Under the pieces are notes generated by a model, which was not told where the DNA came from, ran no database searches, and saw only the letters and a program-made list of their open reading frames with translations. The position numbers and the translations under genes were made by a program. This document shows positions 6,727 to 23,593 of a DNA stretch of 24,000 bases, piece after piece. Where the stretch lies: positions 124,453 through 148,452 of the forward strand of contig JAVBJU010000002.1 of the NCBI GenBank assembly GCA_031546825.1, written 5' to 3'. This DNA comes from Microvirga sp. (GTDB lineage: Bacteria > Pseudomonadota > Alphaproteobacteria > Rhizobiales > Beijerinckiaceae). The first letter of the stretch is position 1. Each line of letters starts with the position of its first letter.

Positions 6727-6918
6727 GGCGGTATCTCCCTATAAAGCGCGCGCGCCACAACCATCGATAACCCGCTGGAAACGCAGTCCCCTCCCAATTT
6801 CTTCCCATATCCCTTTGTTTTTAAACATTTATTTGATCGACAAATCCAGTGATCCAAACTCTGAATTTCTCTTGGGACGACAGGCTCTTTATACCTCAGT
6901 CTAGTAATTAGTTCGCCC

Positions 6919-6947
6919 GTATTAGCAACGCTTAATACTGAGTATAC
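6919..6947. promoter_or_regulatory. Candidate LysR-type operator: overlapping inverted repeats GTATTA-N8-TAATAC and ATACT-G-AGTAT
   Basis: The sequence reads gtattagcaacgcttaatactgagtatac. It has a perfect 6-bp-arm inverted repeat (6919-6938), and a second small palindrome (6935-6945) shares one arm. It lies 35-60 nt upstream of the CitMHS start, in the divergent LysR/CitMHS intergenic region. Confidence 0.35.
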
Positions 6948-6979
6948 AGCGCCAATCAAAATAATTCAAGGAGCATTTC

Positions 6980-8293: not shown

Positions 8294-8307
8294 TCCGAGG
8301 TGTTACC

Positions 8308-9645: not shown

Positions 9646-9646
9646 G

Positions 9647-9958
9647 ATGAAGCTTTACGATATTGCCCATTCACGCACGGGCGACAAGGGCAACACCTCG
9701 AACATCTCCCTTATCGCTTACGACATGAAGCACTATGCGCTCCTCGAGAAATACGTCACCGCCGACAAGGTCAAGGAGCATTTCTCCGACACCGTGCAGG
9801 GCAAAGTGGTGCGTAAGGAGATCCCGAGCATCGGCGCGCTGAACTTCATCATGTACGAAGCGCTCGGCGGCGGTGTGACCCGCTCACTGGCCCTTGACGC
9901 CCACGGCAAATGCCTTGGGGCTGGGCTCTTGAGTTTGGAAATACCAGACACACTTTAA
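9647..9958 (+). CDS. AtuA-like ferredoxin-fold protein (DUF4387), the small partner of DUF1446
   Basis: MKLYDIAHSRTGDKGNTSNISLIAYD...GALNFIMYEALGGGVTRSL. I use the ATG at 9647, directly after the upstream TGA (9643-9645), with GGAGG 6 nt upstream. The track's longer ORF from 9506 would overlap the previous gene by 140 nt. Confidence 0.75.
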   Translation: MKLYDIAHSRTGDKGNTSNISLIAYDMKHYALLEKYVTADKVKEHFSDTVQGKVVRKEIPSIGALNFIMYEALGGGVTRSLALDAHGKCLGAGLLSLEIPDTL

Positions 9959-10068: not shown

Positions 10069-10614
10069 TCAGGGGCGAACGAATACATCTTTTGCCCGTT
10101 GGGAGCGGCGCAGATACGCGCTTATCATCAGGGCGGGAATAACCATCCATACAATCGTCAATGAGATTGAGCGGTCCGCTGCGAAAAACTCTGGCGCCAA
10201 CGACGCCATGATCGTGGGACCACAGATATTCCATATCACCATTGCCAGTAATAATGGGACACAATATTTGCGGAAGCGGCGGCTTTTATCGATAAATCTC
10301 AGTATCAACCAGGCCACCGCAGCGGCCAGCACAAGCACTCCGATGCTATACACAAATTCCACGACCATAACGATGCGAAAGCGAAGCGCGATACTGGTGT
10401 CCAAGAGCAAGTCTGGGAGACCCGAAGCAAGATCGAGTAAGGCAGAACCTCGGATCCAGGCCGTCATCAGGCCAGCCCCCACAATCATGCAGAGATAAAC
10501 CCCGATACCAATAAGCCAGACATTCATCCGTTGCGGCTGCAGCCTCGACTGGAAGGAAGACAATTCCTCCAAAAACGCATCGTTGCTGTCTGTTGGTGCT
10601 TCATCGGCTTTCAT
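10069..10614 (-). CDS. Hypothetical integral membrane protein (about 4 TM segments)
   Basis: The ATG at 10614 has a GGGGGAG RBS. The gene lies 20 nt downstream of the ymdB-like stop. Hydrophobic stretches include VWLIGIGVYLCMIVGAGLMTAWI, VVEFVYSIGVLVLAAAVAWLIL, VPLLLAMVIWNICGPTIMA and LTIVWMVIPALMISAYL. I recognise no family. Confidence 0.6.
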   Translation of the reverse strand: MKADEAPTDSNDAFLEELSSFQSRLQPQRMNVWLIGIGVYLCMIVGAGLMTAWIRGSALLDLASGLPDLLLDTSIALRFRIVMVVEFVYSIGVLVLAAAVAWLILRFIDKSRRFRKYCVPLLLAMVIWNICGPTIMASLAPEFFAADRSISLTIVWMVIPALMISAYLRRSQRAKDVFVRP

Positions 10615-10634: not shown

Positions 10635-11456
10635 TCATTCCCAAAAGCCTGGTCGGCTTTCCTCAAGATGCGGGCCGATGCGCACGGCGGCGACATGGGT
10701 GGCGAGGCCGGTTCTGTCGTCGGTCTCGATGGCGATCCCCGATAAGGTCCCCTCGCCTTCCCCCGGCTCAAGCCGCGTGCCCGGCGTCTTTTGCAGGAAG
10801 CGGCGGATCGCCTCTTCCTTCTTCATGCCAAGCACGGAATCATAATCGCCACACATGCCCGCGTCCGACATATAGGCAGTGCCCCCAGTGAGAATGCGGT
10901 GGTCACCGGTCGGGGCATGGGTGTGGGTGCCAACCACAAGCGAAACCCGCCCATCAAAATGATGGCCAAAAGCCTGCTTCTCGCTGGTTGCCTCAGCGTG
11001 GACATCAAGAATGATGGCATCCGAAACCTGGGCGAGCGGGCATTGGGAAATTTCGCGCTCGGCGGCGGCGAACGGGTCATCGAGCGCATCCATATACAGG
11101 CGGCCCATGACGCTGATGACGAGCAATCGCTTGCCGGAATGGGTATCGATGAGAGTTGCACCGCGCCCCGGTGTACCCGGCGGGTAATTGGCGGGACGCA
11201 GGAGCCTCTGTTGGCGTTCGATGTAAACCAGCGTCTCGCGCTGGTCGAAAGAGTGGTTGCCAAGCGTGACGGCATCGGCACCCGACGCCAGCAGATCATT
11301 ACAGATGGCCTCAGTCAGGCCAAAACCACCAGCGGCGTTCTCGCCGTTGATGACAACGGCATCAAGCAGCCATTGCTCACGCAACGCTGGCAATCGATCA
11401 GAAACCGCCTGACGGCCGGGACGACCCACCACATCACCAAGAAACAAAAGCCGCAT
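10635..11456 (-). CDS. YmdB-like (TIGR00282) metallophosphoesterase
   Basis: MRLLFLGDVVGRPGR...VVINGENAAGGFGLT...TLGNHSFD...DVHAEATSEKQAFGHHFDGRVSLVVGTHTHAPTGDHRIL.GGTAYMSDAGMCGDYDSVLGM is the diagnostic motif set. Confidence 0.88.
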   Translation of the reverse strand: MRLLFLGDVVGRPGRQAVSDRLPALREQWLLDAVVINGENAAGGFGLTEAICNDLLASGADAVTLGNHSFDQRETLVYIERQQRLLRPANYPPGTPGRGATLIDTHSGKRLLVISVMGRLYMDALDDPFAAAEREISQCPLAQVSDAIILDVHAEATSEKQAFGHHFDGRVSLVVGTHTHAPTGDHRILTGGTAYMSDAGMCGDYDSVLGMKKEEAIRRFLQKTPGTRLEPGEGEGTLSGIAIETDDRTGLATHVAAVRIGPHLEESRPGFWE

Positions 11457-11460
11457 ACCA

Positions 11461-12042
11461 TCACTCCGCCACTCGTATCGTCTCCGCCTCGGTCACAATC
11501 ATGCGCAAGGGCTGATCATGGGGTTCCCGCGGCAGCGCAACCTGTTCCTGCATAGCGAAGGCGACACCGATTGTCATGGGGGCACGCGGATGTTGCGCAC
11601 CGGCAAGCGCACGGTCATAGAACCCCTTGCCATAGCCAAGCCGCGTGCCTGAGCGGTCAAAGGCCGCAAGCGGCACGAGAATAACCTCGGGCTGAACAAC
11701 GGCAGCCTTCGCGTCGGGCTCCATCACACCGAAGGGTTTGCGGGTGAGAGCCGCGCCCGGTTGCCAGGCCCGGAACACCAACGTCTCCCCGGTCATCACC
11801 GGCAGAGCGATGCATCTCCCTGTCGCGCTTAAATTCTCCATGAGCGGGCGTAGATCCACCTCGCCTGCAAGCGGCCAGAATGCAGCGACGGATTTAGCCT
11901 GGGAGATTTCGGGAAGCGTGGCGATGTGGGAGCACAGCAGGGCAGATGCGGATGCGCGCCAATCCGCCGACAGGGCGTCGCGTCGGGCCACAATCTCCCG
12001 ACGCAGAATAGTCTTTTGCTCCGCAGGAAATGGTGTGTTCAT
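11461..12042 (-). CDS. ygfA: 5-formyltetrahydrofolate cyclo-ligase
   Basis: The length is 193 aa. Motifs: KTILRREIVARRDAL..., AAFWPLAGEVDLRPL, ILVPLAAFDRSGTRLGYGKGFYDR. The gene sits immediately downstream of the 6S RNA candidate, as in E. coli ssrS-ygfA. Confidence 0.88.
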   Translation of the reverse strand: MNTPFPAEQKTILRREIVARRDALSADWRASASALLCSHIATLPEISQAKSVAAFWPLAGEVDLRPLMENLSATGRCIALPVMTGETLVFRAWQPGAALTRKPFGVMEPDAKAAVVQPEVILVPLAAFDRSGTRLGYGKGFYDRALAGAQHPRAPMTIGVAFAMQEQVALPREPHDQPLRMIVTEAETIRVAE

Positions 12043-12055
12043 GGCGGGCTTTCAT

Positions 12056-12105
12056 AAAAAAACCGCGCGAGAGAGATGTTTCACCGAAACACCTGTCTCG
12101 CGCGG
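12056..12105 (-). terminator. Rho-independent terminator at the 3' end of the 6S RNA candidate, immediately upstream of the 5-FCL start
   Basis: On the minus strand, ccgcgcgaga...tctcgcgcgg forms perfect 10-bp arms (plus-strand 12063-12072 / 12096-12105) with an inner gtttc/gaaac stem. Seven U follow (plus-strand A-run 12056-12062). Confidence 0.7.
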
Positions 12106-12260
12106 TGCGGGCCACGAAAGCCGTTGGAGTGCTGATCCCGGGTACCTACATAGTAGGTGGGCGCCGTATATCCAGGTCCACGGACCTGGTCAGGGACAGC
12201 TCCCTAGGGGATCGTAAGGCCCCGGGGAAATGTCTCCTGACGAGCCCCACAGCACCGCAT
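12100..12260 (-). ncRNA. ssrS: 6S RNA (SsrS) candidate
   Basis: Position: a non-coding 290-nt gap directly upstream of, and co-oriented with, ygfA-like 5-FCL.
Fold done by eye on the minus strand:
- the 5' GCGGUGC (12252-12258) pairs perfectly with the 3' GCACCGC (12103-12109) as a closing stem;
- further paired segments are CGU/ACG, GGAG/CUCC and CCCGGG/CCCGGG, separated by internal loops;
- an apical hairpin CCAGGUCC-GU-GGACCUGG forms near 12166-12183.
A promoter-like element and a terminator flank the candidate. The ends are approximate. Confidence 0.7.
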
Positions 12261-12264
12261 CCCT

Positions 12265-12293
12265 AATGTAATGGCCGCCTCTTGCTTTTGCCA
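12265..12293 (-). promoter_or_regulatory. Candidate sigma-70-type promoter of the 6S RNA
   Basis: On the minus strand, TGGCAA (or CTGGCA) is followed by a 17-18-nt spacer and then TACATT. The -10 element ends 6-7 nt before the first base of the predicted closing stem (about 12258). Confidence 0.35.
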
Positions 12294-12332
12294 GCCCTTA
12301 GAGCAGGAAATATGCCCTTTCAGGCAAATCAT

Positions 12333-12614
12333 TCAGATCAACCCGGCATCGCGAATTTTTTGCTCTATTTCCTGTTCACTGAGGAGGTTTTTCAGGCCTA
12401 TCACCTTGGTCTTGGCCCCGACCTTGAAATTGCTGACGAGGGAATCGGTGCAGAACACCACATCATAATTCGAGGCAACGCTCTTTGCCTCTCCCACCGA
12501 CATATGGCCGACATCGGCTGGCAGGTTCAGTTTCTTGAAGACGTTGGATATCTTCATCTTGATAATCTGTGATGTGCCCATTCCGTTGCCGCACGCGGCG
12601 ATGACCTTCAGCAT
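12333..12614 (-). CDS. ulaB: PTS ascorbate-family EIIB component
   Basis: MLKVIAACGNGMGTSQIIKMKISNVFKKL... contains the phosphorylatable Cys in the AACGNGMGTS motif, as in E. coli UlaB/SgaB. I use the ATG at 12614 with a GGGAGAG RBS. The track ORF's 18-aa N-terminal extension is rejected. Confidence 0.88.
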   Translation of the reverse strand: MLKVIAACGNGMGTSQIIKMKISNVFKKLNLPADVGHMSVGEAKSVASNYDVVFCTDSLVSNFKVGAKTKVIGLKNLLSEQEIEQKIRDAGLI

Positions 12615-12661
12615 TACTCTCTCCCTAAACGGAAATTGCCCGGTCTTTGGCCCGGGAGGAA

Positions 12662-12685
12662 CCGGCACCCCTCATGGGGTGCCGG
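12662..12685 (-). other. Intercistronic stem-loop between ulaA and ulaB
   Basis: ccggcacccc-tcat-ggggtgccgg is a perfect 10-bp GC-rich stem with a 4-nt loop. It starts 15 nt after the ulaA stop. No U-run follows on the transcribed strand, so it is not a canonical terminator. Confidence 0.6.
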
Positions 12686-12700
12686 ATCGTAAGGCGGACT

Positions 12701-14149
12701 TCAGATTTCCCCCACGGCCGTCTCGAAATAGCCCTTCCTGTTTCTGCGATGTTGCAGTTGCGGAATGATGAGCATACCGATGACGAGGACACCGATGGCA
12801 AGCGCTCCGAAGTTCTGGATCAGCCATCCATAGACCGGCCACAGCGTATCCCAGTCGAAGTTGCCATGCCAACCACCGAATTCGGCAAGTCCGAAGGCAC
12901 CGGCGGCGAACGCCCCGCCGAACACCTGGATGAGGCCGGAGCAGAAGCACAGGATGACCAGCGCCCGGAACCCGCCGCGCCGGTTGGCAAACACGCCGAT
13001 TGTCGCGTTGTCGAAGAACACCGGCACAAAACCCGGAATAATCAGAACCGGCGACTTGAAGGCGATCAGCAGCATCACGGCAACGAACTGCCCGATGGCA
13101 CCGAACAGGAAGCCGAACAGGATCGAGTTGCCACCGGCTTTATCAAAACCATAAGTCGCGGCGCAGTCGATGGCGGGCAAGGCACCCTTGAGCAACCTGT
13201 CGGAAATCCCTTTGAAGGATTCGGTCATTTCGGAGACGAACATACGCACGCCAGCCGCGAGAATGTAGAGGTACACCGCGAATTGCAGGGTGGTTTTCAG
13301 CACGTATTTAAGGAACCATTCGCCCGAGCCCGCCGCGTAGAACTTCTTGGCCGCGAGATATTCCGGCCCGAGAATGCAGAGGATTGCGCCGAAAAACACC
13401 AGCATCAGAGTGGAGGTGGCGACAACATTGTCGTTGAAAATCTGGAGGAAGCCCGGCAGCTTCAGGTTCTCAACCGACTTCTCCCTGTTGCCGATCACCG
13501 GCGACAGCTTGTAGGTCAGCCAGACACCGAACATCTGCTGGTGGCCAACGGCAAAGCCAGAATTGTCCGTAAGCTCTTGTGTCGCCTCGACGGTGAGGTT
13601 TGAGAACACCGCCCAATAAGTGCCGACCAGAATACCGCAGATCACCACGCCCCAGGCATTGTTCTGGAGAATCGGTACACCGATGAAGATGATCCACAAG
13701 CCGGTCGTGGCCTGCTGCAACATGATGTGACCGGTGATGAAGAGCGTGCGGATCTTGGTATAATCACGCAAAGCCACCAGAATGATGTTCCAGATGAAGG
13801 CAACAAGCAGCGCCATCATGATCAATGAGGTGGTCCAGCCCGCCTTGGCGAAGGCTGAGTTCACCGCATTGAAACCGAAATACGGATCAATAACCGCGGC
13901 ATGGAGACCGAAGCGCTCGTTGAGCCCGGTCAGGATCGGACGGAAGGAACTGACCAGCCCCCCCGAACCGACCTGCAGGATAAAGAAGCCAACAGCGGCC
14001 TTGATGAAGCCGGAAAAGCAATCATACCAGGGCTTGCGCATCAGCATGTAGCCGATGAGCACGAGCAGGCCGATGAAGATGGCTGGCTCCGCCATGATAT
14101 TGACGAAGACGCTCTGCCAGATGCTGATGATAAAGTTAAAACTATCCAT
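12701..14149 (-). CDS. ulaA: PTS ascorbate-specific EIIC permease
   Basis: This is a 482-aa polytopic protein. GHIMLQQATTG, FAVGHQQMFGVWLTYKLSP, ENLKLPGFLQIFNDN, LPAIDCAATYGF and IIPGFVPVFFDNATIGVFAN closely track my recollection of E. coli UlaA/SgaT. Confidence 0.9.
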   Translation of the reverse strand: MDSFNFIISIWQSVFVNIMAEPAIFIGLLVLIGYMLMRKPWYDCFSGFIKAAVGFFILQVGSGGLVSSFRPILTGLNERFGLHAAVIDPYFGFNAVNSAFAKAGWTTSLIMMALLVAFIWNIILVALRDYTKIRTLFITGHIMLQQATTGLWIIFIGVPILQNNAWGVVICGILVGTYWAVFSNLTVEATQELTDNSGFAVGHQQMFGVWLTYKLSPVIGNREKSVENLKLPGFLQIFNDNVVATSTLMLVFFGAILCILGPEYLAAKKFYAAGSGEWFLKYVLKTTLQFAVYLYILAAGVRMFVSEMTESFKGISDRLLKGALPAIDCAATYGFDKAGGNSILFGFLFGAIGQFVAVMLLIAFKSPVLIIPGFVPVFFDNATIGVFANRRGGFRALVILCFCSGLIQVFGGAFAAGAFGLAEFGGWHGNFDWDTLWPVYGWLIQNFGALAIGVLVIGMLIIPQLQHRRNRKGYFETAVGEI

Positions 14150-14209
14150 CGTGAATCACCCTTGCTGAATACCGGGCGGCCCCATGGGGGCAGTTTCCGG
14201 TGCGGGCGG

Positions 14210-14241
14210 AAAAAAGCCGGAGCCCCTTGCGAGGCACCGGC
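14210..14241 (-). terminator. Intrinsic terminator/attenuator between ulaG and ulaA
   Basis: The minus strand reads GCCGGUGCCUC-GCAA-GGGGCUCCGGC followed by UUUUUU. This gives 5 + 5 bp with one U-U mismatch and one G-U pair, capped by a GNRA (GCAA) tetraloop. It begins 6 nt after the ulaG stop and lies 60 nt before the ulaA ATG. Confidence 0.65.
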
Positions 14242-14247
14242 GCTGGA

Positions 14248-15312
14248 TCAGAGGAATGACGGGAACGGCAAGTCCGTCTCGCCGGTAAAGGCGTCTTCGA
14301 AGCCGCGCGGGTAATGGTACTCCCGCTTGTCCTTGTCATTCGGATAGACGAATTTACCGCCAACCTGCCAGATATACGGCTTAAAACCGTATTGCAGGCG
14401 ATCCTTACGCATTTCCCAAAGCGCAGAGATTTCCATCGGATCCGCCTGGAAGTTTGACCAGATGTCATGATGGAATGGCATTACCACTTTGCAATTCAAC
14501 GCTTCCGCCATGCGCAGAATATCCGACGAGGTCATCTTGTCGGTAATCCCGCGCGGGTTTTCGCCGAAGGAGCCGAGCGCAACGTCAATCTCATAATCAT
14601 TGCCGTGCTTGGCGTAGTGATTGGAGTAATGAGAATCGCCCGAGTGGTAGAGGGAGCCGCCCGGCGTGCGGAACAGATAGTTCACCGCGCGCGCGTTCAT
14701 GTCCTTGGGCATCGCATCCTTGCACTTCACGTCGGCGGGCTGGGTGATGAGCACGGTGCGGTCGAAGGATTCGAGCACGATAATCTCGATATCCTTGATC
14801 TTCACCACATCACCCGGCTTCACCACCTTGCAGCGGTCTGCCGGAACGCCCCATTTCTTCCACAGATCCACACAGCTCTGCGGCCCGATGAACGGCACAG
14901 AAGCATCACAGTTTTTCAGAACTGCGGCGGCAACATTCACGTCGATATGATCGTTATGATCGTGCGTCGACATCACAGCGTCGATCTTTTTGATCGCAAA
15001 CGGGTCAAGCACGAAGGGCGACAGGCGCAGATTGGGCTGCAATTGCTTGCCACCGCTCATGCGCGCCATCTGGTGATGGGGAATCATCCATGGATTCTTG
15101 CGGCTTCGCTTACCAGTGCCGCACCACAGGTCGATGCAGATATTGGCGTCGCCCTGGGTCTTGATCCACAACCCGGTGCAGCCGAGCCACCACATGGCAA
15201 AGGTGCCAGGCTGGACGACCTCGGCTTCGATTTCTTCGTTAAGCCAGGTTCCCCATTGGGGAAATGTGCTCAAAACCCACGATTCTTTGGTGATTTCGTC
15301 AATGGTACTCAT
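14248..15312 (-). CDS. ulaG: L-ascorbate-6-phosphate lactonase
   Basis: [29 protein letters not shown]...[12 protein letters not shown]...[16 protein letters not shown]...[14 protein letters not shown]...[12 protein letters not shown]...[11 protein letters not shown]...[11 protein letters not shown] is near-colinear with E. coli UlaG as I recall it. The start is the ATG at 15312 with a GGGAGAG RBS. Confidence 0.92.
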
Positions 15313-15429
15313 GGCTCTCCCGCTCTCTTGTTCCCGGCGGAACTTCAACTGATGCGATGCGCCGCCCCTCTCAGGTGAATTCAGAACACCCTTCCGAGGC
15401 TTTAAAAAAGACTAGACCAAAAATTCATT

Positions 15430-15445
15430 TTGTCGATCATTATTT
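15430..15445. promoter_or_regulatory. Copy 1 of an exact 16-nt repeat, TTGTCGATCATTATTT (minus strand AAATAATGATCGACAA), upstream of ulaG
   Basis: It is identical to 16045-16060. On the minus strand it contains a -10-like AATAAT followed by ATGATCGACAA. It lies in the 192-nt gap between the ulaC stop and the ulaG start. Confidence 0.5.
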
Positions 15446-15454
15446 AGTATGTTT

Positions 15455-15490
15455 TGAACGATTAATGAAAAATACGAACATTTATCGAAC
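15455..15490. promoter_or_regulatory. Cluster of TGAAC/GAAC half-sites (candidate DeoR/UlaR operator) upstream of ulaG
   Basis: The sequence is TGAACGATtaatgaaaaataCGAACAtttatCGAACA. It includes one of three TGAACGAT octamers in the ula control regions and a GAAC-N7-GAAC direct repeat. Confidence 0.45.
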
Positions 15491-15504
15491 ACCCACGACC
15501 TCCG

Positions 15505-15960
15505 TCACAGACACTTGTCCATCAGCGCAACCGCGTCATCCACCGTTCGGCAGGCGCGTATCCGGTCGAAATTGTCAGGGTCTTCAAACAAGGTGACGAT
15601 CTGCACGATGCCGGTTTCGGTGTGCTCCTGCGCGCTCTTCGCCGCCAGCGTAATAAGAATATCTATTGGGTCGTTATCCGGATCACCAAAATTGACCGGC
15701 GTTTTCAGTGTAACCAGCGCAAATCCGGTTTGTTTGACACCCTCTTCCGGACGCCCATGCGGCATGGCCAGCCCCGGCGCAATCAGAAAATAGGGGCCAT
15801 ATTTCTCCACGCCATCGAGAATCGCCTGATAATAACGCGGCTCCGTCACATCGGCCGCGACCAGCAAATCGGCGCCAAGCTTGACGGCTTCCTGCCAAGT
15901 GGTCGCCTCGGCCTGCAACAGTATGGAATTATTGGCCTTCAAGGATTCCTGTAATTTCAT
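15505..15960 (-). CDS. ulaC: PTS ascorbate-family EIIA component
   Basis: [86 protein letters not shown]... closely tracks E. coli UlaC, including the phospho-His context [12 protein letters not shown] use the ATG at 15960, the sixth codon of the track ORF. Confidence 0.9.
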
Positions 15961-16044
15961 GACCCGCCTATCCATCTTCCAAACCCGCCCAACGGCCGCA
16001 GATAGCGCTGCGACCTTTGATAAAATCTATCATAAAGCCCAAGC

Positions 16045-16060
16045 TTGTCGATCATTATTT
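16045..16060. promoter_or_regulatory. Copy 2 of the exact 16-nt repeat TTGTCGATCATTATTT, in the ulaC/ulaD divergent region; probable ulaC promoter core
   Basis: It is identical to 15430-15445. On the minus strand, TTGAAA (plus 16077-16082), a 17-nt spacer and AATAAT (plus 16054-16059) form a good sigma-70-like promoter about 90 nt upstream of the ulaC ATG. Confidence 0.5.
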
Positions 16061-16111
16061 TGTGCGAATGGAACTATTTCAAAGTTTTCCGCCGAGGCCC
16101 ACTTGCCAAAA

Positions 16112-16168
16112 TGAACGATACATGTTCAAATATCTTCCGTTGGGCAAAATATATGTTCATATCGTTCA
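16112..16168. promoter_or_regulatory. Candidate DeoR/UlaR operators upstream of ulaD
   Basis: There is an inverted repeat, TGAAC-gatacat-GTTCA (16112-16128), and a direct repeat, GTTCA-tatc-GTTCA (16155-16168). They bracket a possible promoter, TTCAAA-N18-ATATAT (16125-16154). The TGAACGAT octamer occurs on both strands. Confidence 0.45.
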
Positions 16169-16241
16169 TATTTTCAGGCATCTTGACCGTCACGTTCTCT
16201 GATACCGGCCCATTACCGGAATGATCACTGAGGAACCCGTC

Positions 16242-16898
16242 ATGTCTCTTCCCCTGCTGCAACTGGCTCTCGACAACAAATCCCTCGCTGAGGCCTTTCA
16301 ATCTACCCGCTTGCTCGCCCCGGAAATTGATATCATCGAAGTCGGCACTATCCTGGCCTGCGCCGATGGTATGCAGGCCGTGCGCTGCATGAAGGCCGCA
16401 TATCCTGACCGTATCGTTCTCGCTGACGTTAAGGCGGCTGATGCTGGCAGTATTCTCTCCAATATGTGCTTCGACAATGGCGCGGACTGGATGACCGTGA
16501 TCTGCTGTGCGCCCATCGCAACCGTTGAATCGGCGATGAAGGAAGCACAGAAGCGCGGCGGAAAATACGATGTCCAGATCGAGCTGACCGGCTCCTGGAC
16601 CTGGGAGGAAGCCAAAAACTGGCACAAGGTCGGCATTCGCCAGGTTGTCTACCACCGTGGCCGCGATGCCCAGGCCGCCGGGCAATCCTGGGCCAAGGAA
16701 GATATTGACACCATTAGCCGGCTCGCCGAAATGGGCTTTCACCCGTCCATTACCGGTGGTCTCGTCATTGATGACCTACAGCTCTTCAAGGGCTTGCCGG
16801 TGAAGTCGTTCATCTCCGGTCGCTCCATGCGCGAGGCCCCCGATCCGGCGGCTGAAGCACGCGCTTTCAAGGCTCGCATCGCCGAATTGTGGGGCTGA
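16242..16898 (+). CDS. ulaD: 3-keto-L-gulonate-6-phosphate decarboxylase
   Basis: MSLPLLQLALDN...IDIIEVGTIL...IVLADVKAADAG...DWMTVICCA...VQIELTGSWTWEEA...VVYHRGRDAQAAG...FISGRSMREA...FKARIAELWG is near-colinear with E. coli UlaD/SgbH. The start is the ATG at 16242 with a GAGGAA RBS. Confidence 0.92.
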   Translation: MSLPLLQLALDNKSLAEAFQSTRLLAPEIDIIEVGTILACADGMQAVRCMKAAYPDRIVLADVKAADAGSILSNMCFDNGADWMTVICCAPIATVESAMKEAQKRGGKYDVQIELTGSWTWEEAKNWHKVGIRQVVYHRGRDAQAAGQSWAKEDIDTISRLAEMGFHPSITGGLVIDDLQLFKGLPVKSFISGRSMREAPDPAAEARAFKARIAELWG

Positions 16899-16902
16899 CC
16901 CG

Positions 16903-17784
16903 ATGCCGATGCCCGCCCTGCCCTGCCTCGGAATCTATGAAAAGGCGCTGCCCGCGTCCATGAGTTGGCGGGAGCGGCTGCTGGCCGCCCACAAAGCCGG
17001 ATACGATTACGTCGAGATGTCCATCGACGAAACCGATACCCGGCTCGCCCGGCTGCAATGGACGGGCGGGGAGCGGCGGGAACTGCGGGATATCATCAAT
17101 GATACCCGCATGCCCATTCGCTCGATCTGCCTATCCGGCCACCGCCGGTTTCCCTTCGGCAGCGAAGACCCATCCGTGCGGGGGCGCGCCCATGATATCA
17201 TGGCACGCGCAGTGGATTTTGCGGCAGATATGGGTATCCGCACCATCCAGCTTGCCGGATACGATGTCTATTACGAACCCTCCACCGCCGACAGCCTGAA
17301 GCGTTTCGAAGAGGGCCTAACCTGGGCCGCCGGGATTGCCGCGCGCTCCCAAGTGATGCTCGGCATGGAGATCATGGATACGGAACTGATGAGTTCCATC
17401 ACCCGTTGGCTGGCCTATGCCGAGAAAATCCGCAGCCCGTGGTTTCAGGTTTATCCCGATATCGGCAACCTGTCGGCGTGGAATAACGATGTTTCCGCCG
17501 AACTCATCAAGGGTGATGGACGCATCACCGCCATCCACCTCAAGGACACCAAGAAAGTCGCCCCCGGCTTCCCCGGACAGTTCCGTGACCTTCTCTTCGG
17601 CGAAGGTTCGGTGGATTTCGTTGCCGCCTTCCGAACCCTCAAAGCCATGGATTACCGCGGCGCATTTCTCGTGGAGATGTGGACGGACAAGGCCGAAGAC
17701 CCGGTTTTCGAGATTACCCGCGCGCGGCAATGGATCATCGCACGGATGCAGGAGGGCGGGCTGATCGGCCCGCAGAACCCATGA
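16903..17784 (+). CDS. ulaE: L-ribulose-5-phosphate 3-epimerase
   Basis: [10 protein letters not shown]...[18 protein letters not shown]...[16 protein letters not shown]...[14 protein letters not shown]...GMEIMDT.LM.SI...[18 protein letters not shown]...FGEGSVDF matches UlaE/SgbU. The start is 4 nt after the ulaD stop. Confidence 0.9.
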
Positions 17785-18470
17785 AAAACATCAGACAGGA
17801 AGTGTTCGAGGCCAATATTTCCTTGCCGAAGATGGGGCTGGTGCTCTTCACCTGGGGCAATGCCTCGGCCATCGACCGGGCACGCGGCCTCGTTTTCATC
17901 AAGCCGTCGGGCGTACCCTATGACGCCATGACCGCGAAAGATATGGTGGTGACGGATCTGGATGGGCGCGTGGTTGAGGGCAGACTGAAGCCATCTTCGG
18001 ACCTACCGACGCATCTCGTATTGTACAGAGCTTTTCCCGAAATCGGCGGTGTGGTCCACACCCATTCGAGCCATGCCACCGCCTGGGCGCAAGCTGGCGA
18101 GAGCATTCCCATGGAAGGCACGACGCAGGCCGATTATTTCTATGGTGGCGTGCCCTGCACCCGCGCCATGACCGATGCCGAGATCACGGGTGCCTATGAA
18201 GCTGAGACCGGCAACGTCATTGTCGAAACCTTTCGCACAGGCGGCTTCAGCCCGTTGGAGCGCCCCGCGGTGCTGGTGCGCAATCACGGCCCCTTCACCT
18301 GGGGCAAGGATGTGCACGAAGCCGTTCATAACGCCGCTGTGCTGGAAGAAGTGGCCCGGATCGGGATATTGTCACGCCTTGCCGGGCGTCCGCAGGAAGC
18401 GCAAAAGGCGCTTCTCGACAAGCACTTCCTGCGCAAGCACGGTGCCAATGCCTATTACGGACAGAGCTAA
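17781..18470 (+). CDS. ulaF: L-ribulose-5-phosphate 4-epimerase
   Basis: [33 protein letters not shown]...[11 protein letters not shown]...[34 protein letters not shown]...[20 protein letters not shown]...[15 protein letters not shown] is the AraD/UlaF signature. The ATG at 17781 overlaps the ulaE stop (ATGA). Confidence 0.9.
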
Positions 18471-18504
18471 CCCTAATTTTTTGCACAACGCCAGCGAGGG
18501 CACC

Positions 18505-18765
18505 ATGCAAACCAGAATTGTGGAAGTCGTTAATCCCACCGGCCTGCATACCCGGCCCGGCAATATGTTCGTCAAAAAGGCCAAAGAATTCACCTCCGTC
18601 GTCACCGTCGCCAAAGGCGACAAAGAAGTGAATGCCAAAAGCCTGCTGACCCTGATGAAAGCGGGCATCTGTCAGGGCGACAAAATCACCATCAAGGCAG
18701 AGGGCAGCGACGAGGCGGAAGCCGTTATCGCGCTGGCAGACCTGGTTGCATCCCTGACAGAGTGA
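18505..18765 (+). CDS. ptsH: HPr phosphocarrier protein
   Basis: The protein is 86 aa: MQTRIVEVVNPTGLHTRPGNMFVKKAKEF...EVNAKSLLTLMKAG...AEGSDEAEAV. The active-site His is at position 15 and a Ser is at position 46, both by direct count. A GCGAGGG RBS lies before the ATG at 18505. Confidence 0.9.
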   Translation: MQTRIVEVVNPTGLHTRPGNMFVKKAKEFTSVVTVAKGDKEVNAKSLLTLMKAGICQGDKITIKAEGSDEAEAVIALADLVASLTE

Positions 18766-18770
18766 GAATC

Positions 18771-20519
18771 ATGCAGCGTTTTTCGGGCATCGCCGCTTCG
18801 CCAGGCATCGCCATCGGTCAGGCTTTCCTTTACGTCTCGCCAAAGCTCGACTTTCCCATGGGCACAATTGCGGAAGCGCAGCGGGACGATGAAATCGCCC
18901 TGTGGCGGCGCGGGCGCGATAAAGCCCAACACAGGCTCCAGGCGCTGGTCGATAAGTTCACCGCGTCCGGTAACGACGATATGGCGGGTGTCTTCGAAGG
19001 CCATATTGAAATACTGACCGACGAAGGCATTGAAGAAGCGGTCTGCGATCTTATCCGCAATGGCAGTTTCGCACTCAATGCCAGCCGCGATGTCATGGAA
19101 GCGCAGCGTGCGGAGTTTCTCGCACTCGACGACGAATACATGCGCCAGCGCGCCGATGATATCGGCGATATTGCCCGCCAGTTGCTCTACGCCATTGCGG
19201 GCATCGCATTCATTGACCTCACGCGCCTCCCCATGGGCACGGTGATCATCGCCAATGATCTCGTGCCGTCCGACACCGCACAGATCGACCCCAAAGCTGT
19301 GGTTGGCATCATCACCGAAACCGGCGGGCGCACCAGCCACACCGCCATCATGGCGCGCACCTTTGAAATCCCCGCTGTGGTCGGCTGCTCCGGCATCATG
19401 GCGCAACTCTCCGACGGCTGTGCACTCGTGGTGGATGGCGGCGAAGGGAACATCGTGCGCGACGCCGATGAAAAAACCCTGTCCGACTACCGCGCAGCGC
19501 AGGCACGTGCCGCCGAAGAGCGCCAGCAAATGCTCGCGCTCGCGCCATTGCCCCCCACCACACGTGACGGCATCACTGTGGCGCTTGCCGCCAATATCGG
19601 CACTCCCGCCGATGCCGAGGCCGCGCTGCCCTGGAACCCCGATGGCGTCGGCCTTTACCGCACCGAATGCCGGTTCATGGATCGTGCGGGGACACCCAGC
19701 GAAGAAGAGCAATACCGCGCCTTTTCAGCGGTCGCCAAAGCGATGCCCGGGAAAGACATCATCATCCGCACACTCGATGTGGGCGGCGACAAACCTATTG
19801 CCGCCATCGCCTTCCCCCACGAAGACAATCCCTTCCTTGGCTGGCGGGGCCTGCGCATGTGCCTGTGGCCGGAGGATGGCCACCAGGAGATCCTGCGCAC
19901 CCAGATACGGGCCGCATTACGCGCTGCCGTTCACGGCCACATCATGCTGATGTATCCGATGATATCGTCGTTCGAAGAGGTCGAAGCGGTCAATGAGCTG
20001 TTCGCTGACGTGAAGCGAGAACTCACCGCCGCTGCAATCCCCTTCGGCAATGTGAAAACCGGCATCATGATAGAGACGCCGGGTGCGGCGCTCATCGCCG
20101 ACAAATTGGCTGAAGTGGTTGATTTCTTCTCAATCGGCTCCAATGATCTGACGCAGTATACGCTGGCAGCCGATCGCGGTAATAAGCAGATCGCGCGCTG
20201 CTACCAGCCGTTTCACCCCGCCGTTTTCCGCCTGGTCGCCTCGGTGATAGATGCCGGCAAAAGCCATAATGTGATGGTCGGCATGTGCGGCGAACTCGCA
20301 GGCATGGAGGAAGCCGCCCTGCCACTGCTCGGGCTTGGGCTCGATGAATTCAGCATGGGCGCACAATCCCTGCCCCGCATCAAACGGATCATCCGCGCCG
20401 CAACCATGGACGATGCCAGAATGGCGGCACGGCAGGTTCTTGATGCCCGCACGGCGGAAGAAGCCTTCCGTCTCGCCCATGAAATCATGCAGACCGTATT
20501 AACCCGGGGAGCGCTCTGA
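18771..20519 (+). CDS. ptsI: Phosphoenolpyruvate-protein phosphotransferase (PTS Enzyme I), sugar type without an N-terminal GAF domain
   Basis: MQRFSGIAASPGIAIGQAFLY...TETGGRTSHTAIMARTFEIPAVVG (phospho-His)...GLYRTE.RFMDR...IRTLDVGGDK...NPFLGWRG.R...SIGSNDLTQYTLAADR...GMCGELAG. The ATG at 18771 lies 5 nt after the ptsH stop. The length is about 582 aa, and the SPGIA motif falls within the first 15 residues. Confidence 0.92.
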   Translation: MQRFSGIAASPGIAIGQAFLYVSPKLDFPMGTIAEAQRDDEIALWRRGRDKAQHRLQALVDKFTASGNDDMAGVFEGHIEILTDEGIEEAVCDLIRNGSFALNASRDVMEAQRAEFLALDDEYMRQRADDIGDIARQLLYAIAGIAFIDLTRLPMGTVIIANDLVPSDTAQIDPKAVVGIITETGGRTSHTAIMARTFEIPAVVGCSGIMAQLSDGCALVVDGGEGNIVRDADEKTLSDYRAAQARAAEERQQMLALAPLPPTTRDGITVALAANIGTPADAEAALPWNPDGVGLYRTECRFMDRAGTPSEEEQYRAFSAVAKAMPGKDIIIRTLDVGGDKPIAAIAFPHEDNPFLGWRGLRMCLWPEDGHQEILRTQIRAALRAAVHGHIMLMYPMISSFEEVEAVNELFADVKRELTAAAIPFGNVKTGIMIETPGAALIADKLAEVVDFFSIGSNDLTQYTLAADRGNKQIARCYQPFHPAVFRLVASVIDAGKSHNVMVGMCGELAGMEEAALPLLGLGLDEFSMGAQSLPRIKRIIRAATMDDARMAARQVLDARTAEEAFRLAHEIMQTVLTRGAL

Positions 20520-20550
20520 CCCCTGTTCGACCCCATGAAACTGGATATCT

Positions 20551-20564
20551 TGAACATATCGAAC
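20551..20564. promoter_or_regulatory. GAAC direct repeat (TGAACatatcGAAC) upstream of the DeoR regulator gene; candidate autoregulatory operator
   Basis: It shares the GAAC-AT-rich spacer-GAAC architecture of 15476-15490 and 16155-16168 (reverse complement TGAACgatatGAAC). It lies in the 219-nt gap between ptsI and the regulator gene. Confidence 0.35.
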
Positions 20565-20738
20565 TTTGTCCCATCTGTTCCCCTTGAAGTGCAGCATGGC
20601 AACGGGTTAGGTTCGCGATCGTCATGATGCCGTGAAAACGGGCGGATTGCAGGATAAGACCGCTTGCGCAATCGGGAATGAGTACGGCATCAGCCGGTAC
20701 CTCTCCTTATATTCGTTTGGGCGGCGAAGGAGCGAAGC

Positions 20739-21599
20739 GTGCCTCACAAGACCCCCGCCATCGCAGCGGAAACCGGAAAGACAAGAAAGACCCGCAAGAA
20801 TGTGCCCGGTCGCGCCACCTCGTTGCGGCGGCAGCGGCTGCTTGCACAAATCGGACGTTCCGAAGAAATCCGCGTCACGGAACTGGCAGAGGCGTTTCAA
20901 GTGTCCGAGCTGACGATCCGCCGCGATCTCGACCAGATGGAGCAGGAAGGCCTGATCGACCGCTTCCACGGCGGCGCGCGCCTGCCCAGCACCATGCGCC
21001 CCGAAATTCTATTCGATGACAAGCCGCTTCTGCGTGCCCATGAAAAGGAAGCCATTGGCCGGGCTGCGGCGGAACTCATCAATGACGGCGAAACCGTGCT
21101 GGTCAATGGTGGCACCACCACCCTCGCCGTGCTGCGACATCTGCGCAGCAAAAGCATCTGCGTCGTCACCAACAACGCTGCCGCACCGCTGGAAATGGGC
21201 GAGTCCCGAATCGAGCTGATCCTGCTTGGCGGGCAATACCGGGCAAAATCCCGTTCGCTGTTTGGCGAGTTGGCCGCTCTCACCCTGTCGCAGGTCAATG
21301 GCGGTGTTTGCATTCTCGGCACCAACGGCATCAGCTCCCGCACCGGTACCACAACCTCGGTCTATTCCGAAGGGGCCATCAATCGCCTGATGTCCGAACG
21401 CTGTGCGGGCAAGGTGATTGTCGTTGCCGACGGCACCAAGATCGGCGCCGTCTCGTCGTTTTCGAGCGTTCCGCTGAAGCGCGTCGATATCCTGATTACC
21501 GACTCCTCGGCAGACCCGGACGAACTCGCCGCCATCCGCGCAGCGGGGGTTGAGGTTATCGTGTGCCCCATAAGCAATAGCAACGCATACGCAGGATAG
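20739..21599 (+). CDS. ulaR: DeoR/GlpR family transcriptional repressor, probable ascorbate-operon regulator (UlaR-like)
   Basis: A DeoR HTH (RRQRLLAQIGRSEEIRVTELAEAFQVSELTIRRDLDQMEQEGLIDRFHGGA) precedes a DeoR C-terminal sugar-phosphate sensor domain (VLVNGGTTT...VVTNN...ILGTNGIS...VVADGTKIG). The start is the GTG at 20739, with a GAAGGAG RBS 6 nt upstream. The functional link to ula rests on position only. Confidence 0.8.
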   Translation: MPHKTPAIAAETGKTRKTRKNVPGRATSLRRQRLLAQIGRSEEIRVTELAEAFQVSELTIRRDLDQMEQEGLIDRFHGGARLPSTMRPEILFDDKPLLRAHEKEAIGRAAAELINDGETVLVNGGTTTLAVLRHLRSKSICVVTNNAAAPLEMGESRIELILLGGQYRAKSRSLFGELAALTLSQVNGGVCILGTNGISSRTGTTTSVYSEGAINRLMSERCAGKVIVVADGTKIGAVSSFSSVPLKRVDILITDSSADPDELAAIRAAGVEVIVCPISNSNAYAG

Positions 21600-21606
21600 C
21601 GTATTT

Positions 21607-22224
21607 TCAATCGCTCCTCTCGACCATCGCGATGATCGTTTTGAAGAGCTCGTCCTTCGCCTGCTGAGCGGTCAGCTCGTTGACCGCGGCGGCATACGAC
21701 AAAGCCTCCGCCGCACCGAGCATCGCCCATAGAGCCGATAAGGCGATGCTCCCACCCTTGGAAAAAGGTGAAAGCACGCCCCGACACTTCTCAATAAATG
21801 CTGTCTGATATTCGCGTTTAATTTTTTCCAGTTCCGGCGAACCGGTCAATGCCGCGATAACTCCGGGGATCTCGCGGCCCTGTTTAAGCACACAATCAAT
21901 ATAGCACGATGAAATCAACATGGCCCTCGCCGACAAGGTCGTGTCGCTCGCCTCGAGTGCAGATTCGATGACCGCATTCTGGCGTGCATCAAACTCCTGA
22001 TAGAGCACCGCGAATAGTCTGGTTCGCGTGCCAAAATGGTCGTAAACGACGGGCTTTGTTACGCCCGATTGCTCGGCAAGGGACCCAAGGGTTAGCGCTT
22101 CCGTGCCTTGTTCCCCAACTAGCCTCCACGCAACGTCCAACAGTTGGCGATAGCGCTCTGCTCTCGACATTCGGCGGCGCGATGACGCGCTGGCAACCTG
22201 CGTTTTTGGTTCGGTGCTTGACAT
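21607..22224 (-). CDS. TetR/AcrR family transcriptional regulator
   Basis: MSSTEPKT...RAERYRQLLDVAWRLVGEQGTEALTLGSLAEQSGVTKPVVYDHFGTR is a TetR N-terminal HTH. I use the ATG at 22224, because the track ORF's 35-aa extension runs through the operator/promoter region. The gene is divergent from the oxidoreductase gene. Confidence 0.85.
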   Translation of the reverse strand: MSSTEPKTQVASASSRRRMSRAERYRQLLDVAWRLVGEQGTEALTLGSLAEQSGVTKPVVYDHFGTRTRLFAVLYQEFDARQNAVIESALEASDTTLSARAMLISSCYIDCVLKQGREIPGVIAALTGSPELEKIKREYQTAFIEKCRGVLSPFSKGGSIALSALWAMLGAAEALSYAAAVNELTAQQAKDELFKTIIAMVERSD

Positions 22225-22228
22225 ATTA

Positions 22229-22259
22229 ATATACCAAAAGTAACTTACTATTAGTATAT
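22229..22259. promoter_or_regulatory. 31-bp near-perfect palindrome, candidate TetR operator
   Basis: In atataccaaaagtaacttactattagtatat, 13 of 15 arm positions are complementary around a central C. It starts 5 nt from the tetR start codon and ends 44 nt upstream of the oxidoreductase ATG. Confidence 0.6.
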
Positions 22260-22302
22260 AAATACGCCATTCTCTCATTTCTTGCAAGCAGGAGGCTTCC
22301 GC

Positions 22303-22911
22303 ATGCACGCGCTCATTGTCCTCGCACATCCCCTCGCCTCATCACTCAGCCACAGTATTGTCACCCAGATTGCCGAAGGCATAATCCAGTCAAACCCCGA
22401 TAACTCTGTCGAAATAGCGGACATTACCAAGGAAGGGTTCGATCCTCGATTCAGCATTGCTGATATCGCTGCCTTTCACAAAGAGGCTCCGCCGCCCGCC
22501 GATGTTATCGCCGAACAGGCGCGCATTGATCGCGCCGATGCACTCGTGCTGGTCTTTCCTGTTTATTGGTGGTCGATGCCAGCAGTGCTTAAAGGCTGGA
22601 TTGATCGCGTGTTCAGCAATGGTTGGGCTTACGATGAAGCCCCGGACACCAAACCGGTGAAGAAGCTTGGTCGTCTCCCCGTACATCTGGTTGCGATCGG
22701 TGCGGCACATAGAGAAACGTACTTGCGGCACAGCTTTGCTGAAGCCATGAAGACGCAAATCGAGCACGGCATTTTTGATTATTGTGGCGCCCCCATCTTG
22801 AGCTCCGATCTATTACTCCTCCCGGAATTGCAAGAACCAAACGCATATCAGAATGTCGCCCACGTCATTGGCCGCAAAGTATTTACCACGCAGAGGGCCG
22901 AAGCAGTATGA
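22303..22911 (+). CDS. Flavodoxin-like-fold NAD(P)H dehydrogenase (quinone), NQO/KefF/MdaB-like
   Basis: MHALIVLAHPLASSLSHSI...ADALVLVFPVYWWSMPAVLKGWIDRVFSNGWAY is typical of Flavodoxin_2 family proteins. The ATG at 22303 has GGAGG 8 nt upstream. Confidence 0.75.
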   Translation: MHALIVLAHPLASSLSHSIVTQIAEGIIQSNPDNSVEIADITKEGFDPRFSIADIAAFHKEAPPPADVIAEQARIDRADALVLVFPVYWWSMPAVLKGWIDRVFSNGWAYDEAPDTKPVKKLGRLPVHLVAIGAAHRETYLRHSFAEAMKTQIEHGIFDYCGAPILSSDLLLLPELQEPNAYQNVAHVIGRKVFTTQRAEAV

Positions 22912-22912
22912 A

Positions 22913-23299
22913 TTACACCGCACCGCTCGTTTCGTTCGGCGGCGGTGCGTTCAAGCTTCGCGCCAAACGCTCAATCCGCTCCGCCGTCTGGTCGATTTTT
23001 TCGGCAAAGCGACTGGCGAGGATGGTGCTGCGCTCATCCCCTAGGGAGGCCATCGACTGATAATCAGCAAGTTCGGCCTGGGCCTTTTCAAGTTTGACGC
23101 GCAAATCCATGACTTCATCGGCGACGGTCAACGCTGCCATGACATGCAAACGCATATCGCCGATCTCGCCAAATGCCTGGCGCATTTCGTCGATACGGCT
23201 GTCGAACAGCGCGGCAAGCCCTTCGAGATGGGCTTCCTCGCCGTCGCCGCACGCCATGCGGTAGGACCGTCCGGCAATCGTCACCATGATCTGCGGCAT
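22913..23299 (-). CDS. zapA: Cell division protein ZapA
   Basis: MPQIMVTIAGRSYRMACGDGEEAHLEGLAALFDSRIDEMRQAFGEIGDMRLHVMAALTVADE is the alphaproteobacterial ZapA N-terminal signature, followed by a coiled-coil tail. Confidence 0.85.
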   Translation of the reverse strand: MPQIMVTIAGRSYRMACGDGEEAHLEGLAALFDSRIDEMRQAFGEIGDMRLHVMAALTVADEVMDLRVKLEKAQAELADYQSMASLGDERSTILASRFAEKIDQTAERIERLARSLNAPPPNETSGAV

Positions 23300-23317: not shown

Positions 23318-23593
23318 TTACGCGCCGGTTTCCGACAGAAGGCGTCGCATTGCGTCGGATGCGCGCGTCACGCGTTCCTGCACATCCTGCGTCACGGCAT
23401 CAAGTTTTTTAAGGCGATCCGTGGTCCCCTCCAGGTCGATGGCAAGGCGGGCGCGGTCGTCCTGCATGATCTGAAGTTCGGTCTCCAGATCACCGCGCCG
23501 CTTTTCGACATCAACCTTGCGGGTCACAGACGCCTCGAGCATCCCGAGCGCCGTATCCAGCCGTTTCAATGCTTCATCCAACGATGGCGTCAT
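23318..23593 (-). CDS. DUF4164 coiled-coil protein (usual upstream partner of zapA in Rhizobiales)
   Basis: The 91-aa sequence is entirely heptad-like (LDEALKRLDTALGMLE...LETELQIMQDDRARLAIDLE...). Its stop lies 18 nt before the zapA start. Confidence 0.65.
   Translation of the reverse strand: MTPSLDEALKRLDTALGMLEASVTRKVDVEKRRGDLETELQIMQDDRARLAIDLEGTTDRLKKLDAVTQDVQERVTRASDAMRRLLSETGA

Follow-up and report, generated by a model that had tools for sequence, protein, structure and literature searches.

The question raised by this locus is why two core genes that sit side by side in the closest relatives, zapA and the 6S RNA gene ssrS, are about 10.6 kb apart in the 24,000-nucleotide stretch of Microvirga sp. 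DNA analysed here (the window), and where the genes that now separate them came from. The gene map was built from an open reading frame (ORF) listing together with Pfam and NCBIfam scans, and RNA genes were located by an Rfam scan. The core gene to the right of the insertion is zapA (22913-23299, minus strand, 128 amino acids, PF05164, E 2.8e-22); to the left lie ssrS (12106-12258, minus, RF00013, 69.1 bits, E 5.5e-12) and, beginning 63 nucleotides (nt) past the 6S 3' end, the gene for 5-formyltetrahydrofolate cyclo-ligase (5-FCL; 11461-12042, minus, PF01812, E 1.8e-41). These coordinates reproduce those of an earlier reading of the same letters (the original prediction), which had placed zapA and the 6S plus 5-FCL block (11461-12260) in one orientation on the minus strand, and all of its intervening ula, pts, DeoR and TetR/quinone-reductase genes, 12 in number, are identified by Pfam and NCBIfam. 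Our answer, held with good though not full confidence, is that the lineage gained two unrelated accessory modules at a plastic zapA/ssrS junction without a mobile-element signature; it is carried by the identities of the genes, empty sites in relatives, the portability of both modules, a discordant phylogeny and the variability of the site.

The 6S match spans the full RF00013 model (positions 1-187) and exceeds the gathering score of 46.4, and thus the element predicted at 12.1-12.26 kb is a 6S RNA by covariance search; its orthologues in relatives score 64.6-87.5 bits against the same model. It is 89-92% identical to these at the nucleotide level, compared with 70-80% for the flanking coding sequences. 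Relatives were found by a zapA-anchored scan with one genome per species, in which the nearest named genome is that of Hohaiivirga grylli (ZapA 83%, YmdB 90% identical to the window), and Microvirga, Bosea, Chelatococcus and Methylobacterium appear at about 55-66% identity. At least seven members of the Hohaiivirga-like clade have an empty site (H. grylli, L001; L084; L091; L171 plus L083; L172-L177; L178), which bears out the view that accessory DNA splits an otherwise contiguous zapA-ssrS-5-FCL block. In H. grylli about 66 nt lie between the zapA stop and 6S, which in turn precedes 5-FCL, and across the empty-site relatives it can be seen that 19-70 nt separate the zapA stop from a conserved 6S promoter, with 6S after it. 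The closest relative found is represented by two contigs of one sample, L171, which ends 104 nt after zapA, and L083, which starts inside 6S. Both are Logan contigs of run SRR31913104 and share the same 30-mer inside 6S (L171 4729-4758, L083 1-30); the assembly graph evidently branches in the conserved 6S stretch, and therefore metagenome contig ends next to 6S are not readable as insertion sites.

When the empty sites are aligned with the window junctions joined in silico, a promoter block (TTTC..TGCT, CTGG(C/T), about 17-18 nt, TACAT) stands at identical spacing from the 6S start. The retained block of the window covers 12259-12312 (minus) and is made up of TTTC..TGCT, a -35-like element at about 12293-12288 and the -10 element TACATT at 12270-12265. 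Homology to the empty sites by blastn stops at window position 12273, with weaker similarity to about 12312, and restarts at 22947-22950, so that on the right side it ends about 11 codons before the zapA stop codon. The foreign segment is accordingly about 12313-22912, and since the 6S promoter, 6S and 5-FCL are left intact, the insertion is neutral for the core genes. It is also specific to the lineage of the window, as the empty sites in at least seven clade members show. The last 11 or so zapA codons of the window are divergent, but the ZapA tail varies among relatives with empty sites too, so these codons may or may not derive from the insert.

The larger part of the insert, module 1 (12333-21599, 9.3 kb), encodes a full route for L-ascorbate: the components EIIA, EIIB and EIIC of a phosphotransferase system (PTS), the enzymes UlaG, UlaD, UlaE and UlaF, and the general PTS proteins. 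A first unit, ulaG-ulaA-ulaB (12333-15312, minus; NCBIfam and Pfam), encodes the L-ascorbate-6-phosphate lactonase UlaG (NF008688, 658 bits, cut-off 306), the EIIC UlaA (NF006919, 398 bits, cut-off 380) and a UlaB-like EIIB, and it is followed by ulaC for the ascorbate-type EIIA (15505-15975, minus; NF007694, 255 bits, cut-off 187). On the plus strand, ulaD-ulaE-ulaF (16221-18470) encode 3-keto-L-gulonate-6-phosphate decarboxylase (NF009832, 300 bits, cut-off 250), L-ribulose-5-phosphate 3-epimerase (NF009689, 414 bits, cut-off 200) and the L-ribulose-5-phosphate 4-epimerase UlaF/AraD (NF006047, 363 bits, cut-off 257). Next come ptsH for an HPr of 86 amino acids (18505-18765, plus; TIGR01003, 87 bits, cut-off 48) and ptsI for a sugar-type Enzyme I of 582 amino acids (18771-20519, plus; TIGR01417, 569 bits, cut-off 342) that has three PEP-utiliser domains and lacks a GAF domain. 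The last gene encodes a DeoR-family regulator (20739-21599, plus; PF08220 and PF00455), and its translation probably begins downstream of the GTG at 20739.

Each of the two ula promoter regions contains one copy of a 34-nt element (repeat family D4), at 15430-15463 and 16045-16078, and the copies agree in their first 16 nt, TTGTCGATCATTATTT. In addition, inverted repeats of the ATGAACGAT..TGTTCA type (GAACA/TGTTCA) are present in the ulaC/ulaD spacer at about 16110-16190 and upstream of the DeoR gene at about 20545-20570. Both kinds of repeat are putative operators to which the DeoR regulator would bind; in the related cassettes L081 and L085, no 16-mer of this sequence was seen at the corresponding places.

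These cassettes make it clear that module 1 has an existence outside the window. The same gene set (ulaG, ulaA-B, ulaC, ulaD-E-F, HPr, Enzyme I and a DeoR regulator) is found in Uliginosibacterium (L081), in a proteobacterial metagenome-assembled genome (MAG; L085/L086) and in a JGI contig, with an order that varies, and every cassette protein of the window is 59-79% identical to its counterpart there, HPr being 71-73% identical to the cassette copies and PtsI 59-64% identical to those of L081 and L085. With the same gene set and all of its proteins in this range of identity, the cassette therefore evolves and moves as a unit, with ptsH-ptsI and the regulator as parts of it, and its distribution is scattered over alpha- and betaproteobacteria. 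Individual copies differ in detail: the MAG cassette L085 (4276-13059) is without ulaD, the cassette of JGI contig 3300056388 has a LamB-type porin between ulaB and ulaC, and that of Uliginosibacterium has a HAD hydrolase and an unknown 506-amino-acid gene after ulaB. A plasmid carrier was also considered; a tblastn search of UlaA against 72,556 plasmids returned nothing above 60% identity, and thus no evidence for a plasmid vector.

The nearest relatives of UlaA, at 70-81% identity, come from metagenomic Proteobacteria, the betaproteobacterium Uliginosibacterium gangwonense and a Telmatospirillum MAG (Alphaproteobacteria, Rhodospirillales), while identity falls to about 60% with Clostridia and other Firmicutes and to about 41% (40-42%) with E. 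coli and Pantoea. A bootstrapped neighbour-joining tree of 26 taxa and 472 columns places the UlaA of the window in an 11-member alpha/betaproteobacterial clade (98/100 bootstrap) that is sister to the UlaA of the Clostridia/Firmicutes type. In phylogenetic terms, then, the sequences mark the ula cassette as foreign to its host. The original prediction had asked whether UlaA nests within Gammaproteobacteria or Firmicutes; the clade found is mixed alpha and beta, its sister is of the Clostridia type, and the E. coli protein is distant.

Module 2 (21607-22911, 1.3 kb) consists of a divergent pair, a TetR-family regulator of about 205 amino acids (21607-22224, minus; PF00440) and an NAD(P)H-dependent oxidoreductase of the Flavodoxin_2 family (QR; 22303-22911, plus, 202 amino acids, PF02525, E 3.6e-39). 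Homologues of QR with 60-70% identity are scattered through many Proteobacteria. The pair as such occurs between a ParE toxin and RtcB in L088, and between a hydrolase and a guanylate cyclase in Microvirga L089/L090, with both genes 57-70% identical to those of the window; the TetR protein is 69% identical to that of L088 and 57% identical to that of L089/L090, each of which stands beside an oxidoreductase homologue. As the pair is found in unrelated contexts, module 2 is therefore independent of the ula cassette. A tblastn alignment of the long TetR ORF extends across the TetR-QR intergenic region of L088 (window 22225-22302, L088 9908-10000), which suggests that a divergent promoter/operator region of about 80-95 nt with the imperfect palindrome ATATAC...GTATAT is kept along with both genes. 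The insert is, consequently, a composite of at least two independent modules, and the single acquisition assumed in the original prediction does not hold, for one part travels as a unit elsewhere and the other turns up in unrelated contexts.

The modules are packed very tightly. The QR stop TGA (22909-22911) is separated by one base from the zapA stop (TTA on the plus strand, 22913-22915), exactly as predicted, and the DeoR and TetR stops are 7 nt apart (junction 21597-21609). At the left edge, the ulaB stop (12333-12335) is about 20 nt from sequence homologous with the empty sites and about 40 nt from the -35-like element, in agreement with the earlier estimate, and only a weak hairpin follows ulaB. 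The convergent pairs DeoR/TetR and QR/zapA leave no room for a terminator and should produce overlapping antisense 3' ends. Sequence past the stops of QR, ulaB, DeoR and TetR was compared with L088, L089, L085 and L081; no similarity extends past the stop codons, and neither microhomology nor a donor flank was recognised at the module ends in these comparisons.

It had been suggested that the insert contains no visible insertion machinery, and domain, tRNA/tmRNA and repeat searches agree. No integrase or transposase domain was detected by Pfam in any insert gene, no tRNA or tmRNA was found in the window, and the edges at 12.3 kb and 22.9 kb share no direct or inverted repeat, as only chance-level short matches were seen. 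Likewise, composition is host-like, as had been judged by eye: GC content is 0.572 both inside and outside the insert, and the pooled relative synonymous codon usage (RSCU) of the ula cassette correlates with that of host genes at r = 0.94, compared with r = 0.875 between two halves of the host set. The TetR-QR pair alone deviates (GC at third codon positions, GC3, of 0.60; r = 0.69), with just 405 codons, which are too few to weigh. Since host-like composition fits amelioration and a donor of similar composition equally well, and the nearest foreign cassette, L085, is itself similar (GC 0.58; RSCU r = 0.93 with the window cassette), the part of the original prediction that called the insert acquired stands, while an old age, one of the two options named there, is not established. 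The insertion postdates the divergence from relatives that are about 76-80% identical in nucleotide sequence.

To place the junction in a wider frame, 160 Hyphomicrobiales zapA loci were surveyed, 80 from genomes and 80 from metagenomes, with 6S searched by nhmmer and 5-FCL and YmdB by tblastn. In the first 80 loci, the gap from 6S to 5-FCL is 5-358 nt, and nearly always below 150 nt, wherever both were found; across the survey the 6S-5-FCL pair is never split, and the two are inseparable. The boundary on the zapA side behaves differently. zapA and 6S are tightly linked in 55 of the 120 informative loci (about 46%), in 32 loci 0.5-3.2 kb lie between them, and in 33 loci with enough sequence there is no 6S within 10 kb, a class to which the window itself would belong. 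At least six cargo sets were seen (GNAT acetyltransferase; AlkZ-like glycosylase; TetR and MFS; YcxB, TetR and MFS; D-Ala-D-Ala ligase, Ddl; Ddl, nitrilase and LysR), and where 6S is not near, the gene after zapA may encode acetyl-CoA synthetase, XseA, TerC, OmpA, an ankyrin protein, LacI, IMPDH or a metallo-beta-lactamase-fold protein. Pairwise blastn within genera showed synteny kept upstream of zapA and ending right after the zapA stop in every comparison. Among the cargo and breakpoint genes of 17 other loci, a sample and not an exhaustive set, no mobility-associated protein was seen, nor an integrase beside zapA; ula genes are missing from all 160 loci.

Two further observations concern this junction in other genera. 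In Bosea, a block that lies upstream of DUF4164-zapA in one genome is inverted downstream in another (L066 14714-20348, L058 3813-9518). In Methylobacterium L021 (10394-14098) and L035 (about 12061-14013), the genes after zapA are one for a LacI-family regulator and an 847-amino-acid ORF whose HPr-like and Enzyme-I-like regions are 36-37% identical to the HPr and PtsI of the window; PTS-type genes thus stand at the zapA junction of another genus, and 6S is not present within 10 kb.

Hotspots at which transferred genes accumulate between core genes have been described; in many of them no mobile element can be recognised, and recombination in the adjoining core genes is the proposed cause of their turnover (Oliveira, Touchon, Cury & Rocha 2017, PMC5635113). 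The zapA/6S site best fits such a hotspot: variable cargo lies between the core genes zapA and ssrS-5-FCL, related genomes carry different cargo, integrase, transposase and tRNA are missing, and the genes are adaptive metabolic and regulatory ones. The published hotspots differ in that they were defined from pangenomes within species or clades, whereas the present comparison runs across the genera of an order (160 loci), and one flank here is a small RNA gene whose conservation far exceeds that of the genes around it. Their diagnostic is that homologous recombination is raised in the core genes on either side, and the likeness seen at this site is one of variable cargo and missing mobility genes. 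With 32 loci of other cargo and 33 breakpoints among 160, and with such hotspots already known, the earlier idea of a one-off, non-canonical event can be set aside. In the literature we found neither ssrS nor zapA described as a place where islands integrate. A bolder extension, which we regard as doubtful, is that the gap between the zapA stop and the ssrS promoter is an order-wide hotspot free of mobile elements, in which the conserved 6S would serve as a homology anchor by which species swap and replace cargo, and read-through into ssrS from the resident operon, here ulaG-A-B, would tie the supply of 6S precursor to the inducer of the cargo. The identity of 6S among relatives (89-92%, against 70-80% for its neighbours) would make it a good anchor of this kind.

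The survey also refines what is known of gene order around 6S. The zapA-ssrS-ygfA array (ZapAB->SsrS->FAU1->EVE) is documented for beta- and gammaproteobacteria, the ssrS-ygfA pair for Proteobacteria generally, with alphaproteobacteria included, and zapA flanking of ssrS is stated not to be typical of alphaproteobacteria (PMC7641849). The relatives of the window have zapA, 6S and 5-FCL in the order and orientation of that array, and the window keeps its ssrS-5-FCL link; unlike the array, zapA and ssrS are 10.6 kb apart in the window, a DUF4164 gene stands where beta- and gammaproteobacteria have zapB, and there is no EVE gene. With zapA-ssrS adjacency in about 46% of informative Hyphomicrobiales loci, that published statement is refined, and the adjacency expected in the original prediction holds for the closest relatives and fails as a general rule.

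Of the other explanations, the one that survives best is a decayed classical genomic island, in which a site-specific integrase inserted the DNA beside ssrS and the integrase and att repeats were later deleted; we consider it unlikely. Small stable-RNA genes are classical targets of islands, the zapA/6S site has been used repeatedly in many genera, and deletion clearly acted, as the junctions are trimmed to 1 nt, 7 nt and about 20 nt. As in islands associated with tRNA or tmRNA genes, foreign DNA lies beside a small stable-RNA gene at a site reused across taxa. However, integrase, transposase, tRNA and flanking repeat are all absent from the insert, and its 10.6 kb are filled by 12 intact metabolic and regulatory genes with no spacer longer than 245 nt, and therefore with no room to hide a decayed integrase. 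The insertion lies upstream of the 6S promoter, on the 5' side of the RNA gene, whereas integrases usually act at the 3' end, of which there is no att duplication; composition is not atypical; other occupied or broken loci that were examined have no integrase beside zapA; and the insert is two unrelated modules, not one element. A classical integrase-mediated island was rejected in the same way: integrase, att repeat, tRNA target and atypical composition were each tested for and none was present, although the sporadic distribution and the absence from close relatives are those of an island.

It could also be supposed that the genes stood between zapA and ssrS in the ancestor of the clade and were lost in all sampled relatives, and the GC content and codon usage of the cassette, which equal those of the host, are what long residence would give. 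This ancestral arrangement is strongly disfavoured and in our opinion very improbable, since zapA, promoter and 6S are closely linked, at a spacing that is conserved, in at least seven clade members and in 48 further loci of other genera, many independent precise deletions would be needed, UlaA groups with betaproteobacterial and Rhodospirillales sequences and with no Hyphomicrobiales sequence, and none of the 160 loci has any ula gene. Lastly, a chimeric assembly with 10.6 kb misjoined into the zapA-ssrS interval is hardly credible, for although the window comes from a draft contig of 233,941 bp and related metagenome assemblies break inside 6S (e.g., L171/L083), it would take two independent mis-joins exactly between a stop codon and the 6S promoter, with no junction repeat that could mislead an assembler, GC content and codon usage are continuous over both junctions, and the UlaA, QR, ZapA and YmdB proteins are on the same contig.

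Several points weigh against the gain of two modules at this junction as we read it. GC content and codon usage fail to mark the cassette as foreign, so the call of horizontal transfer is drawn from distribution and phylogeny alone. The relatives were surveyed at the zapA locus, and ula genes elsewhere in them are excluded only indirectly, through the UlaA matches, the 120 best of which include none named Hohaiivirga or Microvirga. No donor or intermediate genome with either module at the zapA/6S site was found, so that more than one route, and either order of the two gains, would fit. In the 33 loci that lack 6S within 10 kb, the cause may be a large insertion or a rearrangement. UlaB is recognised by Pfam PTS_IIB only (E 6.7e-16; 52 bits against an IIB equivalog cut-off of 138), though it is 73-77% identical to the EIIB that neighbours UlaA in related cassettes. 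The DeoR regulator reaches 100 bits against a UlaR equivalog cut-off of 244 and so is not a UlaR orthologue; a counterpart with 59-61% identity stands at the corresponding place in the cassettes of L081, L085 and the JGI contig. Finally, that the ptsHI genes of the cassette fill a missing host function is argued from alphaproteobacteria in general. Alphaproteobacteria such as Brucella, Sinorhizobium and Agrobacterium have the regulatory PTS-Ntr only and are without PTS permeases (PMC2937029), and the cassette may therefore carry its own ptsH-ptsI.

With these points in mind, the gain of two modules may be pictured as follows. After the split from the Hohaiivirga-like relatives, both would have been gained in the gap of roughly 20 nt between the zapA stop and the ssrS promoter, in either order, by what may have been illegitimate or homology-assisted recombination followed by deletional trimming, which would account for the stop-to-stop packing. 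UlaC, UlaB and UlaA (EIIA, EIIB and EIIC) would import and phosphorylate ascorbate, the Enzyme I and HPr of the cassette itself would provide the phosphoryl relay, and UlaG, UlaD, UlaE and UlaF would turn ascorbate 6-phosphate into D-xylulose 5-phosphate, while the DeoR-family repressor probably regulates the cassette through the repeated operators in its promoter regions. Expression, substrate and ecological use of the cassette are what we infer from this gene content.

The comparison with the ula (sga) regulon of E. coli (ulaG, ulaABCDEF, ulaR) is instructive. Both have the L-ascorbate EIIC and EIIA, UlaG, UlaD, UlaE and UlaF, with a probable EIIB in the window, a regulator of the DeoR family and divergent promoters. 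They differ in that the UlaA of the window is only about 41% identical to that of E. coli and closer to the Clostridia type (about 60%), ulaG-A-B form one unit with ulaC alone, the regulator is not the UlaR equivalog, and the window cassette carries its own ptsH-ptsI pair, which the E. coli regulon does not include.

The surroundings of the insertion show smaller differences of their own. On the right, the conserved upstream partner of zapA is the DUF4164 gene (23318-23593, minus; PF13747), which adjoins zapA in nearly all of the 160 surveyed loci. On the left, a hairpin with a 21-bp stem (90% complementary) followed by seven T lies at 12062-12106 (minus), directly after the 6S 3' end and ending 20 nt ahead of the 5-FCL start codon. 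In E. coli, ssrS-ygfA is a dicistronic unit. The hairpin looks like a strong intrinsic terminator within the ssrS-5-FCL unit, and none was seen in this spacer in the relatives L001, L083 and L084. Beyond 5-FCL are the genes for a YmdB-type phosphoesterase (10635-11456, minus) and, between it and the AtuA-ferredoxin gene, a DUF2569 protein (10069-10614, minus), both from ORF and domain scans. The DUF2569 gene has the lowest GC3 among the flanking genes (0.60) and is missing in the closest relative, L083, whose YmdB and AtuA-ferredoxin genes are separated by just 134 nt; it looks like a second small lineage-specific gain. A block of LysR, CitMHS transporter, AtuA and AtuA-ferredoxin genes (window 5824-9958, L083 1735-5834), between YmdB and the NAGPA-YebC-RuvC genes, is missing in L084, L001 and L172, and is another indel polymorphism, less than 2 kb from the 6S locus.

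The cargo families and the kind of genomic setting described here are already known, and current understanding is not overturned. The junction survey helps in annotating the surroundings of 6S RNA genes and in locating adaptive genes specific to a lineage, and it identifies the zapA/ssrS boundary as one place where Hyphomicrobiales genomes take up new genes or break synteny. For the organism itself, the locus is a case of an alphaproteobacterium gaining a complete PTS-based pathway in one step, with its own Enzyme I and HPr, as a plug-and-play metabolic module, and the ula cassette may reflect a host-associated or fermentative niche.

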